A stretch of DNA of 5,405 nucleotides, taken from a virus. Taxonomy: Duplodnaviria > Heunggongvirae > Uroviricota > Caudoviricetes. This document shows positions 1-5,405 of this stretch, one piece after another (position 1 is the first letter of the stretch; every line of letters starts with the position of its first letter). The translations under genes were made by a program, and so were the position numbers. The stretch is from IMG/VR virus record IMGVR_UViG_2609459845_000005; one strand, given 5' to 3'. The notes beneath the pieces are model-generated. The model had not been told where the DNA came from and ran no database searches. It saw nothing but the letters and a program-made list of their open reading frames with translations.

Positions 1-477
1 CGTTGGCCTCAACACGATTTTACGTCACTTAAAAAACTCAGGCCGCAGTCGGTAACCTCGCGCATACAGCCGGGCAGTGACGTCATCGTCTGCGCGGAAA
101 TGGACGAACAGTGGGGCTATGTCGGGGCTAAATCGCGCCAGCGCTGGCTGTTTTACGCGTATGACAGGCTCCGGAAGACGGTTGTTGCGCACGTATTCGG
201 TGAACGCACTATGGCGACGCTGGGGCGTCTTATGAGCCTGCTGTCACCCTTTGACGTGGTGATATGGATGACGGATGGCTGGCCGCTGTATGAATCCCGC
301 CTGAAGGGAAAGCTGCACGTAATCAGCAAGCGATATACGCAGCGAATTGAGCGGCATAACCTGAATCTGAGGCAGCACCTGGCACGGCTGGGACGGAAGT
401 CGCTGTCGTTCTCAAAATCGGTGGAGCTGCATGACAAAGTCATCGGGCATTATCTGAACATAAAACACTATCAATAA
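1..477 (+). CDS. insB: IS1 InsB' transposase domain (5' partial; expressed as InsAB' fusion by -1 frameshift)
   Basis: Frame 1 is open from base 1 ([49 protein letters not shown]...HYLNIKHYQ*) and contains the track ORF 100..477. It matches IS1 InsB as recalled. Confidence 0.9.
2..55 (+). CDS. insA: IS1 InsA, 3' end only (5' partial)
   Basis: Frame 2 translates ...[17 protein letters not shown] with TAA at 53-55, which matches the InsA C-terminus from memory. Confidence 0.85.
31..37 (+). promoter_or_regulatory. IS1 programmed -1 ribosomal frameshift site (A6C slippery motif)
   Basis: AAAAAAC at 31-37 sits in the insA/insB' overlap within the context ttAAAAAACtc, the known IS1 frameshift window. 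Confidence 0.8.
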
Positions 478-1920: not shown

Positions 1921-1979
1921 TGCAGCGGGTGCTTGAGGCTATCTGTCTCAGGCATGAACACCAAAAGGCAGATAGAGAA

Positions 1980-2047
1980 AAGCCCCAGTTAACATTACGC
2001 GTCCGGCAAGACGCTTAACATTAATCTGAGGCCATATCTATGCTCTA
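1980..2047 (-). ncRNA. sok: candidate Sok-type antisense RNA (approximate ends)
   Basis: Minus-strand promoter-like elements: -35 TTGCCT (plus 2078-2083), 17-nt spacer, -10 TAACCT (plus 2055-2060). The transcript would be antisense to the mok start region and carries an imperfect hairpin (GUUAA/UUAAC outer stem, GCGUC/GACGC inner stem) before a short U-run. Placement follows the known hok/sok architecture. Confidence 0.4.
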
Positions 2048-2252
2048 CACACGTAGGTTAGCCTCTTACGTGCCGAAAGGCAAGGAGAAGCAGGCTATGA
2101 AGCAGCAAAAGGCGATGCTAATCGCCCTGATCGTCATCTGTTTAACCGTCATTGTGACGGCACTGGTAACGAGGAAAGACCTCTGCGAGGTACGAATCCG
2201 AACCGGCCAGACGGAGGTCGCTGTCTTCACAGCTTACGAACCTGAGGAGTAA
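2040..2252 (+). CDS. mok: Mok-like reading frame (70 aa), in frame with and containing hok
   Basis: ATG at 2040 extends the Hok frame by 19 codons (MLYTRRLASYVPKGKEKQA-), with a GGAGG-type RBS within it just before the hok ATG. This is the same arrangement I recall for chromosomal mokC/hokC. Confidence 0.55.
   Translation: MLYTRRLASYVPKGKEKQAMKQQKAMLIALIVICLTVIVTALVTRKDLCEVRIRTGQTEVAVFTAYEPEE
2097..2252 (+). CDS. hokD: Hok-family type I toxin, HokD-like (51 aa)
   Basis: MKQQKAMLIALIVICLTVIVTALVTRKDLCEVRIRTGQTEVAVFTAYEPEE matches E. coli HokD (RelF) as I recall it: one TM helix plus the conserved C-terminal Hok region. AGGAGAAG RBS precedes the ATG. Confidence 0.9.
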   Translation: MKQQKAMLIALIVICLTVIVTALVTRKDLCEVRIRTGQTEVAVFTAYEPEE

Positions 2253-2693: not shown

Positions 2694-3743
2694 GTGCGGG
2701 TATTACTTCGACCTGTTCTGGTACCGGAACTCGGGCTGGTGATCGTTAAGCCGGGCCGTGAATCCATGCCGGTATTCCACAATACCCGGGTACTGGTGGA
2801 GCCGGAACCGAAAAGCATGCGTAATCTGTCGTCCGGGGTCGTTCCTGCCGTTCGCCAGCCGCTGGCGGAGGATAAATCATTACTGCCATTTTTCAGCGAC
2901 GAACGAGTGATTCGTGCTGCTGGTGGCGCTGGCGCATTGTCTGACTGGTTACTGCGCCATGTTAAATCCTGCCAGTGGCCACACGGCGATTATCACCACA
3001 GTGAAACCGTCATTCACCGTTATGGTACCGGCGCAATGGTGTTGTGCTGGCACTGCGACAACCAGTTGCGTGACCAGACCTCCGAATCACTTGAGCAACT
3101 TGCTCACCAAAACCTGTCAGCATGGATGATTGACGTCATTCGTCACGCAATGAATGGCACACAGGAGCGTGAATTATCGCTGGCTGAATTATCCTGGTGG
3201 GCGGCCTGCAATCAGGTGGTGGATGCACTACCTGAGGCAGTAGCGCGTCGTTCGCTGGGATTACCAGCGGAAAAAATCCGCTCCGTATACCGTGAGAGTG
3301 ACATCGTACCGGGAGAACAGACAGCCATCAGCATACTGAAGCAGCGCACAAAAAATATTGCGCTGCCACTTCACGTCCACCAGCAACAAAATCCACCACA
3401 GGAAAAGACGGTGGTCAGCATTGCCGTTGATCCGGAGTCTCCGGAATCCTTCATGAAACGACCTAAACGTCGCCGCTGGGTTAACGAGAAATACACGCGC
3501 TGGGTGAAGACACAGCCGTGTGCGTGTTGTGGTAAGCCAGCCGACGATCCCCATCACCTGATTGGTCATGGTCAGGGCGGAATGGGGACAAAATCTCACG
3601 ATATTTTCACGCTACCGCTGTGTCGGGAGCATCACAACGAGCTTCATGCGGATCCGCTGGCGTTCGAAGAAAAGCATGGCTCTCAGGTTGATTTAATTTT
3701 TCGTTTTCTTGATCACGCCTTTGCAACCGGCGTGCTCGGGTAA
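2694..3743 (+). CDS. ydfU: YdfU-like prophage protein (DUF968 family), 349 aa, Cys/His-rich C-terminus
   Basis: GTG start at 2694, 1 nt after the upstream stop, with GGAGG at 2685-2689. Length and synteny (hokD-rem-ydfU-Q) match Qin ydfU as recalled. The C-terminus carries CACCGKPADDPHHLIGHG...CREHHNELH. Confidence 0.65.
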   Translation: MRVLLRPVLVPELGLVIVKPGRESMPVFHNTRVLVEPEPKSMRNLSSGVVPAVRQPLAEDKSLLPFFSDERVIRAAGGAGALSDWLLRHVKSCQWPHGDYHHSETVIHRYGTGAMVLCWHCDNQLRDQTSESLEQLAHQNLSAWMIDVIRHAMNGTQERELSLAELSWWAACNQVVDALPEAVARRSLGLPAEKIRSVYRESDIVPGEQTAISILKQRTKNIALPLHVHQQQNPPQEKTVVSIAVDPESPESFMKRPKRRRWVNEKYTRWVKTQPCACCGKPADDPHHLIGHGQGGMGTKSHDIFTLPLCREHHNELHADPLAFEEKHGSQVDLIFRFLDHAFATGVLG

Positions 3744-3755
3744 AAGAGGTTACTG

Positions 3756-4130
3756 ATGCGTATAGAGTTTGTTTTGCCTTACCCGCCGACGGTGAACACC
3801 TACTGGCGACGTCGTGGCAGCACATATTTTGTATCAAAAGCCGGTGAGCGTTATCGCCGGGCTGTGGCGCTTATTGTTCGCCAGCAGCGGCTGAAATTAA
3901 GCCTGTCCGGAAGGCTGGCGATAAAGATTATTGCCGCGCCACCGGATAAGCGCCGCCGTGACCTGGACAATATTCTGAAAGCGCCGCTGGATGCGCTGAC
4001 GCATGCGGGGTTGCTAATGGACGATGAGCAGTTTGATGAAATCAATATCGTTCGTGCTCAGCCAGTATCTGGTGGACGTCTGGGGGTGAAGATTTACCCC
4101 ATAATGCTTGCAGGGCAGGTCAAAAAATGA
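3756..4130 (+). CDS. rusA: RusA-family Holliday junction resolvase (124 aa)
   Basis: AAGAGG RBS at 3744-3749. LPYPPTVNTYWRRR, DKRRRDLDNILKA and SGGRLGVKI align with the RusA signature blocks (LPWPPSNNRYYR, DRRRRDLDN, KGGRL) as recalled. Confidence 0.85.
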   Translation: MRIEFVLPYPPTVNTYWRRRGSTYFVSKAGERYRRAVALIVRQQRLKLSLSGRLAIKIIAAPPDKRRRDLDNILKAPLDALTHAGLLMDDEQFDEINIVRAQPVSGGRLGVKIYPIMLAGQVKK

Positions 4131-4948
4131 AACTGGAAGATTTACCGAAATACTACTCCCCAAAATCCCCCGGCCTGACTGATGCATCGGCCTCAACGTC
4201 GAAAGATGCGCTGAGTATCACTGATGTGATGGCCGCGCAGGGCATGACACAGAATCGGGCTGGGATGGGGTTTTCTGCGTTCCTTGGGAAAATGGGCATT
4301 AGTATGAATGACAGAGAGCGGGCAACAGAATTGCTGACAGAATATGCACTCAGTCGGTGTGATCGCGTGGCGGCGTTAAGAAAACTCCCGGCAGAAATAA
4401 AACCGGCAGTGATGCGTATTATGGCTTCGTATGCGTTTGAAGATTATGCCCGTAGCGCAGCGAGCAAAAAACAGTGCCCCTGCTGTCACGGAAAAAAATT
4501 TATTGAAAGCGAGGTTTTTACAAACAAGATCCAGTATCCGGATGGTAAGCCGCCGGTATGGGCAAAGTGTACGAAAGGTGTGTATCCGTCTTACTGGGAA
4601 GAATGGAAAAAAGTCAGGGAGGTGGTAAAAGTTGCCTGTCCGGAGTGTGGCGGAAAGGGTGAGGTTTCCACCGCCTGTAAGGATTGCCGTGGGCGTGGTG
4701 TCGCCATTCATCGTGAAGAGTCGGTAAAACGTGGTATGCCTGTTATCAGAGACTGCCAGCGTTGTGGTGGTCGTGGCTGTGAAAGACTACCATCAACGGA
4801 GGCATTTAATGCCATATGCAAAGTGACGAGTGCTATCACGCTTGATACGTGGAAAAAATCAGTGAAACGCTTTTACGATACGTTGGTGGTTCGGTTTGAC
4901 ATTGAAGAGGCATGGGCGGAGCGGCAGTTAAAGAGGGTAACGCGATAG
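4127..4948 (+). CDS. putative late-gene antiterminator Q-like protein with four DnaJ-type zinc-finger repeats (273 aa)
   Basis: ATG overlaps the rusA stop (ATGA). It is the last gene before a promoter/terminator pair, as Q is in lambdoid phages. Contains CPCCHGKK, CPECGGKG, CKDCRGRG and CQRCGGRG (three perfect CxxCxGxG). Confidence 0.55.
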   Translation: MKLEDLPKYYSPKSPGLTDASASTSKDALSITDVMAAQGMTQNRAGMGFSAFLGKMGISMNDRERATELLTEYALSRCDRVAALRKLPAEIKPAVMRIMASYAFEDYARSAASKKQCPCCHGKKFIESEVFTNKIQYPDGKPPVWAKCTKGVYPSYWEEWKKVREVVKVACPECGGKGEVSTACKDCRGRGVAIHREESVKRGMPVIRDCQRCGGRGCERLPSTEAFNAICKVTSAITLDTWKKSVKRFYDTLVVRFDIEEAWAERQLKRVTR

Positions 4949-4953
4949 TGTTG

Positions 4954-4981
4954 TTGATTTTTCCCGAATCTGTGGTAAATT
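4954..4981 (+). promoter_or_regulatory. candidate late promoter (PR'-like) with embedded Q-utilisation region
   Basis: TTGATT at 4954-4959, 16-nt spacer, extended -10 TGgTAAATT at 4973-4981. It starts 6 nt after the Q-like stop. Confidence 0.4.
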
Positions 4982-5030
4982 CGCTCTAACGATGGGCGTT
5001 TTATGCCTGACGTTAGAAGATTTTTTACAC

Positions 5031-5053
5031 CCCGCCGCCTGGCGGGTTTTTTA
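5031..5053 (+). terminator. strong intrinsic terminator (tR'-like) about 60 nt downstream of the candidate late promoter
   Basis: cccgcc-gcct-ggcggg is a perfect 6-bp GC stem, followed by tttttta. Confidence 0.75.
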
Positions 5054-5174
5054 TGACTGAAATCGCGTCAGTACAGTAAACGCGCTGGTGGCGGTGAATA
5101 CCTGTCTTTCAGCTTGCTGGCTTTTTCGACAAGAGTTATTGGTGTGTCACGTTAACCGGAAAAGGGAAAAAGAC

Positions 5175-5372
5175 ATGCTAAAACAGCAGGATATGACAGA
5201 AACCGCCAGAGTAGTGTTTAATGAATTAAGCGTTACCGAACCGGCGACAGTCGGGGAGATTGCACAGAATACTTACCTTTCACGCGAACGCTGCCAGTTA
5301 ATACTGACCCAGCTGGTTATGGCGGGGCTGGCAGACTATCAGTTCGGTTGTTACAGACGCCTTCCGCAGTGA
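5175..5372 (+). CDS. hypothetical small protein (65 aa), possible helix-turn-helix DNA-binding protein
   Basis: ATG at 5175 with AAGGGA at 5162-5167. The track ORF start at 5088 is a GTG with no RBS. The segment VGEIAQNTYLSRERCQLILTQLVMAGL looks like an HTH recognition helix. Confidence 0.45.
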   Translation: MLKQQDMTETARVVFNELSVTEPATVGEIAQNTYLSRERCQLILTQLVMAGLADYQFGCYRRLPQ

Positions 5373-5383
5373 AGGCTTTTTTA
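5359..5383 (+). terminator. intrinsic terminator overlapping the stop codon of the 65-aa ORF
   Basis: gccttc-cgcagt-gaaggc stem-loop followed by tttttta. The stop TGA (5370-5372) lies in the loop/3' arm. Confidence 0.65.
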
Positions 5384-5405
5384 TTTGTGGTAAATGGGCG
5401 GCTGG

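Follow-up and report, generated by a model that had tools for sequence, protein, structure and literature searches.

An open reading frame (ORF) on the plus strand of the window, that is, the whole 5,405-nucleotide stretch of Caudoviricetes DNA filed as IMG/VR record IMGVR_UViG_2609459845_000005, very probably (at roughly 85%) encodes the late-gene antiterminator Q of a lambdoid prophage, a member of family PF03589 in the common long-arm form also represented by Q of phage phi80 and by QuuQ (YdfT) of the Escherichia coli K-12 prophage Qin. The ORF occupies 4127-4948 and specifies 273 amino acids plus a stop. A first-pass annotation, made from the letters alone, had described a Q-like protein with four zinc knuckles in the Q position, and this half of its interpretation stands, while its proposal of either a new class of Q or a foreign zinc finger does not.

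Assignment to the lambda Q family

The protein is assigned to the lambda Q family because searches of the Protein Data Bank (PDB), Pfam and PHROG and the comparison of an AlphaFold2 (AF2) model by Foldseek agree. The closest PDB match by phmmer is lambda Q (7UBM chain Q, E 2.9e-40), in which residues 1-113 pair with lambda Q 1-113 and residues 182-273 pair with lambda Q 116-207. The alignment with lambda Q (phmmer and MAFFT) runs from residue 1 to the C-terminal VTR with a single insertion of 66-68 residues, opposite which MAFFT leaves lambda Q with a gap of 66 residues. Identity to lambda Q amounts to about 40% across all 207 alignable residues, with segment values of 52%, 32%, 37% and 37%, the first belonging to residues 1-60. 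In the Pfam scan PF03589 ("Antitermination protein Q") scored 165.6 bits against a cut-off of 26.7 (E 2.8e-49), phrog_127 'anti-termination protein Q-like' was matched at E 4.9e-112, and Q-like PHROG families matched at E ~1e-112. The AF2 model of the full-length protein was built on 75 homologues with a mean predicted local distance difference test (pLDDT) score of 80.9, and its top 8 PDB matches in Foldseek were all lambda Q chains (E 3e-12 to 2e-6), with template modelling scores of 0.61-0.75 when normalised to target length; the ninth match was a DnaJ homologue at E ~1.

The protein is divided into the following segments.

4127-4306, plus strand: N-terminal segment, residues 1-60, the most lambda-like part (52% identical to lambda Q 1-60)
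4307-4465, plus strand: first half of the helical body, residues 61-113, pairing with lambda Q 61-113
4466-4669, plus strand: inserted zinc module, residues 114-181, made up of knuckles 1 and 2 and, between them, a long beta-hairpin whose tip varies; absent from lambda Q
4670-4792, plus strand: lambda-type zinc ribbon or 'arm', residues 182-222, with knuckles 3 and 4, pairing with lambda Q 116-156
4793-4945, plus strand: second half of the body, residues 223-273, with a helix-turn-helix equivalent and the C-terminal helix, pairing with lambda Q 157-207 and sharing the VTR end

AF2 placed helices at residues 60-80 and 92-111 in the first half of the body (pLDDT above 90) and at residues 223-233 and 239-272 in the second. 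Lambda Q is composed of a helical body (61-113 and 153-207) and a zinc-ribbon 'arm' (114-152), and its N-terminal segment refolds into a nozzle at the RNA-exit channel of RNA polymerase (RNAP) (PMC9388147). By analogy, residues 1-60 of the window protein would take the same nozzle role.

Each lambda-family Q tested (the window Q, lambda Q, phi80 Q and YdfT) gives two full-length matches to PF03589, a model of 87 positions: one match lies in the N-terminal half and the other in the C-terminal half, in the window Q at residues 24-111 and 178-265. An internal duplication, either of the inserted module or of the two halves of Q, was considered and rejected, as the insertion alone gives no PF03589 match; residues 24-111 and 178-265 showed no similarity to one another by BLASTP. 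The double match probably reflects an oddity in the construction of the Pfam model rather than an internal repeat.

Yin et al. 2022 (PMC9388147) divide Q proteins into three families unrelated to one another, with PF03589 as that of lambda Q. With the Pfam numbers taken from that paper, neither Q21 (PF06530) nor Q82 (PF06323) was matched at E <= 0.01 in the Pfam scan, and no Q21 structure was found among the PDB matches at E <= 10 in the sequence and structure searches. A fourth Q family beside those of lambda, 21 and 82, the distinct structural class first suggested, could appeal to the 66 residues by which the protein exceeds lambda Q and to its doubled number of zinc knuckles. It is nevertheless very improbable, since the alignable 207 residues, the Pfam family and the predicted fold are all shared with lambda Q, and the difference from lambda Q comes down to one inserted module that is deleted cleanly in close relatives.

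Zinc knuckles and the inserted module

A regular-expression search of the 273-residue translation returned exactly four C-x2-C-x-G motifs.

4475-4498, plus strand: motif 1, CPCCHGKK, residues 117-124
4637-4660, plus strand: motif 2, CPECGGKG, residues 171-178
4676-4699, plus strand: motif 3, CKDCRGRG, residues 184-191
4754-4777, plus strand: motif 4, CQRCGGRG, residues 210-217

These strings are identical to the four that the first-pass annotation had read at 4474-4780, the motifs themselves spanning 4475-4777. Three of the four follow strict CxxCxGxG, and motif 1 has K as its last residue instead of G. The pattern is not a product of chance, since at least four CxxCxG motifs were reached in 0 of 100,000 shuffles of the protein and all eight cysteines are invariant, both in the 75-homologue alignment, which goes down to 56% identity, and in a 55-homologue alignment reaching 26% identity. 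The count of four DnaJ-style CxxCxGxG knuckles also agrees with the earlier expectation that there are enough of them for two zinc centres.

The premise that this arrangement is unlike that of lambda Q was incorrect, because the lambda ribbon consists of two knuckles of the same CxxCxGxG type, C118-RD-C121-HGTG (CRDCHGTG) and C144-GR-C147-KGVG (CGRCKGVG), which align with motifs 3 and 4. C184, C187, C210 and C213 correspond to C118, C121, C144 and C147 of lambda Q, with a cysteine-to-cysteine spacing of 26 in both proteins, and lambda Q alone gives a sub-threshold DnaJ_CXXCXGXG match of 23.1 bits in Pfam. Alignment with other Q proteins, proposed at the outset as a check, settled the question of a new class in the negative, as QuuQ (YdfT) carries the same four motifs and phi80 Q does likewise. 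All of the lambda Q family, with lambda Q itself among its members, has the CxxCxGxG knuckle as its native zinc motif.

It is hardly conceivable that the Q position is taken by some other zinc-finger protein without antiterminator function, for instance a chaperone like DnaJ or a module like anti-TRAP, as the full-length homology to lambda Q effectively refutes it. What could be cited in its favour is a DnaJ_CXXCXGXG (PF00684) match of 27.9 bits, below the cut-off of 32.7, a TIGR02349 (DnaJ_bact) match of 21.9 bits against a cut-off of 377.2 that aligns over the knuckles only, sub-threshold anti-TRAP matches and one database homologue (P0046) that carries the name 'chaperone protein DnaJ'. The J domain, the G/F region and the C-terminal substrate-binding domains of DnaJ had no Pfam match in the protein. 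The resemblance to DnaJ thus concerns the knuckle and not the domain, because the PF00684 score stays below its cut-off and no other part of DnaJ is present. The name given to P0046 in NCBI is likely a mis-annotation arising from the knuckle motif.

AF2 was run twice, on the full-length protein and on the arm alone, with the same mean pLDDT of 80.9. In both models strands 125-136 and 159-170 form a long beta-hairpin between motifs 1 and 2, and short strands lie beside each knuckle in the pattern of a zinc ribbon. Knuckles 3 and 4 (C184, C187, C210 and C213) are, by their alignment, the lambda-type zinc ribbon, and the equivalent site in lambda was defined crystallographically (PMC9388147). Knuckles 1 and 2 (C117, C120, C171 and C174) most likely provide the ligands of a second zinc, which would lie at the foot of the inserted hairpin, at the junction of arm and body. 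On the predicted topology and homology, two tandem zinc ribbons (1 with 2, 3 with 4) are thus the most likely arrangement, rather than the interleaved pairing of DnaJ (1 with 4, 2 with 3). This pairing is proposed because motifs 3 and 4 are homologous to the lambda site, the hairpin brings knuckles 1 and 2 together, these two are naturally lost, and the stretch between them is variable: family members have anywhere between 6 and 55 residues there but retain the four cysteines, and a clean 67-residue deletion in homologue P0173, compared with its close relative P0134, takes motifs 1 and 2 and spares 3 and 4.

The DnaJ cysteine-rich domain (PDB 1EXK) pairs its knuckles in the interleaved manner, and a Q protein whose knuckles pair likewise, giving a true two-zinc hairpin arm, is a minority possibility that still deserves some weight. 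It is favoured, and tandem ribbons are correspondingly disfavoured, by the spacing between motifs 2 and 3, which is fixed at 13 residues and in anti-TRAP lets neighbouring motifs share one zinc. Pointing in the same direction are a weak anti-TRAP match over residues 167-195 (E 0.032, phmmer against the PDB) and a weak RtpA match over the same stretch (E 5.7e-4). The tandem arrangement is preferred in view of the lambda homology and of the separate loss of motifs 1 and 2.

To our knowledge, the extra zinc module has no solved structure, and all solved structures of the lambda Q family that we know of are of the short-armed lambda Q. The insertion falls between the equivalents of lambda Q residues 113 and 116, which is both hinge and polymerase interface. 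In lambda the arm is a zinc ribbon contacting the DNA of the Q-binding element (QBE) and the beta' zinc-binding domain of RNAP, it swings by ~75 degrees to the far half of the QBE, and residues 110-112, 117 and 122-126 touch the beta' zinc-binding domain (PMC9388147). Since the insertion sits at this hinge, beside the residues that contact the polymerase in lambda, the module might, at low confidence, stiffen or extend the base of the arm and add a contact to polymerase or promoter DNA. The module appears to be accessory, as it has been lost in lambda and P0173 and is cut down to a bare pair of knuckles in P0126, P0133 and P0154.

Late promoter, leader and neighbouring genes

The gene order RusA, Q, promoter, AACGATGGG and terminator places the gene at the end of the nin/early-right region, in a position like that of lambda Q. 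The placement of Q just before a promoter and a short terminated leader, already noted in the first reading, was confirmed by the following elements.

4954-4981, plus strand: late promoter (pR'-like), with -35 TTGATT (4954-4959), the 16-nucleotide spacer TTTCCCGAATCTGTGG (4960-4975) and -10 TAAATT (4976-4981), preceded by TGG
4988-4996, plus strand: putative sigma-dependent pause element, AACGAT followed by GGG (AACGATGGG), starting 6 nucleotides after the -10
5031-5052, plus strand: intrinsic terminator of the ~65-nucleotide leader, CCCGCC-GCCT-GGCGGG (hairpin 5031-5046) followed by T6, from a terminator scan

The promoter was called from its correspondence with those of lambda, phi80 and HK225. 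Lambda pR' has the layout TTGACT, 17 nucleotides, TAAATT, 6 nucleotides and AACGATGGG, and the annotated phi80 pR' is arranged likewise. A generic promoter scan of 4900-5405 reported no promoter, because the site fits only 8 of the 12 consensus positions. The phi80 Q-binding site is annotated just after the -35 (TCGCGGA), at which place the window has TCCCGAA, and the window has a spacer block TTTCCCGAA(T/A)CTG in common with HK225, mEp237 and Erwinia phage 49 (identity of their Q proteins, 52-61%). As the block sits where the annotated Q-binding site of phi80 lies, the spacer TTTCCCGAATCTGTGG is a candidate Q-binding element.

AACGATGGG is identical and at the same 6-nucleotide distance in lambda, HK225, mEp237, SfV and K-12 Qin, and transcription would start at about 4988. 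In lambda, AACGAT resembles a -10 element and retains sigma70-RNAP at a pause close to the promoter, which is the loading point for Q, and a pause function of AACGAT in the window is presumed by analogy. The RNA of 4988-5056 folds at -21.9 kcal/mol (z -2.8) into a structure that contains the terminator hairpin. In 27 distinct relatives the DNA between the -35 and the end of the terminator hardly changes, the terminator stem being kept and the loop variable; in contrast, synonymous sites of Q diverge up to a synonymous distance (dS) of 0.39 and the sequence past the terminator varies. The viral loci used for promoter conservation and for selection on Q are relatives with 95-100% protein identity, and the comparison of Q with QBE across clades covers a handful of named phages.

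The homology to lambda Q and the matching geometry of promoter, pause element and terminator, which is nearly invariant in relatives, make a mechanism of the lambda type most likely, each step being modelled on lambda. Q would bind a Q-binding element in the late promoter just 3' of its own gene, for which TTTCCCGAATCTGTGG between the -35 and the -10 is the candidate, and would capture the RNA polymerase that AACGAT, at about +1 to +6, has halted in a sigma-dependent pause. Assisted by NusA, the conserved N-terminal 60 residues would then refold into a nozzle on the RNA-exit channel, and the modified polymerase would pass the terminator at 5031-5052 and later ones to reach the late and lysis genes. 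The presumed first target of this read-through is the first ORF past the terminator.

5175-5372, plus strand: first ORF past the terminator, 65 residues, phrog_331 (unknown function), E 1.4e-37

This ORF also gave a weak TrmB winged-helix match below threshold (E 0.0026), and both SfV (as orf47) and E. coli DA33133 have the same 65-residue ORF after Q. A terminator-like hairpin lies at its end (5359-5376). In an E. coli locus that is 99.6% identical, the genes found downstream are, in order, those of a small ORF, a methyltransferase, several tRNAs, an esterase and lastly the holin; this is the late region of a prophage resembling Shiga toxin (Stx) phages.

Further genes were identified upstream.

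100-477 (window 1-477), plus strand: IS1 transposase ORF, PF03400 positions 7-131 of 131, E 2.9e-74
1927-2252, plus strand: hok/sok type I toxin-antitoxin, Rfam sok at 1927-2102 (117 bits), Hok/Gef ORF ending at 2252 (PF01848, E 1.2e-23)
2694-3743, plus strand: DUF968 protein (YdfU-like), 349 residues, PF06147, E 1.5e-76
3756-4130, plus strand: RusA Holliday-junction resolvase, PF05866

The stop of RusA overlaps the start of Q by 4 nucleotides (ATGA, 4127-4130), and this overlap suggests that the two genes are translationally coupled. The DUF968 gene occupies the place of NinG/Rap in other lambdoid phages, and its product has a weak HNH-nuclease match below threshold in the Cys/His-rich C-terminus (PF16784, E 1.1e-4). 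The position of hok/sok agrees with that of hokD in K-12 Qin, and small ORFs with no assigned function are also found upstream of Q. The window begins inside IS1, a sign that the prophage segment was probably truncated, or took up an insertion, on its left side.

Given this IS1 fragment the prophage may be partly decayed, and antitermination by this particular allele would follow by analogy with its relatives; both points weigh against the assignment of a working Q. One could further argue for a gene that has lost its activity in a decaying prophage from its closest K-12 analogue, which resides in the cryptic prophage Qin, and from one related locus (L034) with an internal stop. Such a relic is decidedly unlikely, however, as the ORF is full length, with the same length as clusters of thousands of members, and Q is under purifying selection, with a median ratio of nonsynonymous to synonymous divergence (dN/dS) of 0.08 over 53 alleles. 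Promoter, pause element and terminator are nearly invariant, and a 96%-identical gene is found in a Stx2a-converting phage and a 91%-identical one in phage vB_EcoS-640R1. An intact lambda-family Q remains the preferred reading.

Distribution and comparison with known systems

Of the best 120 database homologues, 111 have four strict motifs, and the remainder are mostly fragments. In a set of 33 sequences of nearly full length, made up of 26 representatives of clusters at 50% identity and 7 named sequences (the window's included), 27 keep all four cysteine pairs, with motif 3 often CxC instead of CxxC. The long form is found in phi80 Q, K-12 Qin YdfT/QuuQ, HK225, mEp237, ES18 gp73, SfV Q, Erwinia phage 49 and some Stx2 phages, and all four cysteine pairs are present in K-12 YdfT, HK225, ES18 and Erwinia phage 49. 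In homologue P0001 (337 residues) six knuckle motifs were observed, apparently owing to an extra copy of the motif 1-2 module at the N-terminus.

In a neighbour-joining tree of the body, which is rough, the short form makes up a small clade (lambda and P0186) nested among long forms, with P0173 separate. By this placement the module appears to have undergone at least two losses, one in the lambda clade and one in P0173, and the two-zinc arm looks like the usual state and the lambda arm like a reduced one, the library matches being ranked by similarity to a long-form query. A fuller version of this idea is possible yet doubtful, namely that the two-zinc arm is both the ancestral and the majority state, that lambda Q is a reduced derivative and that the module provides a contact that lambda Q lacks, to the beta' zinc-binding domain or to DNA beside the Q-binding element. 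If so, the published structures of lambda Q loading complexes would show only the minimal version of the mechanism.

Among 5,426 complete E. coli genomes, 2,495 contain near-identical copies of the gene, annotated "antitermination protein", and a 100% identical protein is encoded on another IMG/VR contig (L004). The gene is thus already known, being annotated and very common, and represents the lambda Q family with a two-zinc arm of the phi80/QuuQ type; as a discovery it carries little weight, with an annotation in close to half of complete E. coli genomes. Of modest value is the correction of the idea that the CxxCxGxG knuckle sets this protein apart from lambda Q. The same holds for the observation that the solved structures are all short-armed, the minority form here, while the 96%-identical allele, annotated quuQ, lies in the Stx2a-converting phage Stx2_EH1910 (LC567834.1, 54683-55501), where Q controls toxin. 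This Q allele may accordingly control toxin expression in some lineages of Shiga-toxin-producing E. coli.

Outside the Q proteins, the knuckle motif that the window Q has four times is shared with the DnaJ cysteine-rich domain (PF00684, 1EXK), anti-TRAP and BSD2, with local structural similarity over ~45 residues. The comparison values (measure unnamed) were as follows.

DnaJA2: 3.3
Lambda Q: 2.9
DnaJ cysteine-rich domain (1EXK): 2.5
Anti-TRAP: 2.3
BSD2: 2.0

DnaJ differs from the window Q in motif spacing, as a 46-residue hairpin separates motifs 1 and 2 in the latter, and the context in the window is transcription instead of protein folding.

Lambda Q (PDB 4MO1, 7UBJ-7UBN) shares with the window protein the family, predicted fold, N-terminus, zinc ribbon (motifs 3 and 4), gene position and the logic of pR', AACGAT and terminator, and differs in lacking the 66-residue module of motifs 1 and 2. 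The lambda leader is also much longer than the ~65 nucleotides here, as no terminator was found within the 260 nucleotides read downstream of lambda Q; it is transcribed as the ~194-nucleotide 6S RNA.

YdfT of K-12 Qin (QuuQ, b1559) carries the four motifs CEHCSGTG, CQHCHGKG, CRGCKGKG and CGRCNGNR, and its locus resembles the window with hokD, rem and DUF968/YdfU upstream, the same AACGATGGG and a short terminated leader. Unlike the window Q, YdfT is 250 residues long and has 27 residues between motifs 1 and 2 compared with 46, and its locus has no RusA gene between YdfU and Q and belongs to a cryptic prophage. A literature search on quuQ/ydfT found nothing relevant.

The phi80 Q protein (gp17, 269 residues; JX871397, AFV29194), which has reportedly been studied experimentally as an antiterminator, combines, as here, a lambda-like N-terminus and body with four cysteine pairs at equivalent positions (CDCCDGGG, CKPCNGKG, CRCHGKG and CDRCGGRG), motif 3 being CxC in phi80 and CxxC in the window. 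In GenBank gp17 is annotated as late antiterminator, with pR' and the Q-binding site marked, and the promoter layout is the same. The inserted module is the best-conserved segment between the two proteins (53% identical, compared with 41% overall), whereas identity falls to 20% in the C-terminal helices that read DNA and the two promoters have different spacer sequences, so that the DNA specificity of the window Q is expected to differ from that of phi80 Q.

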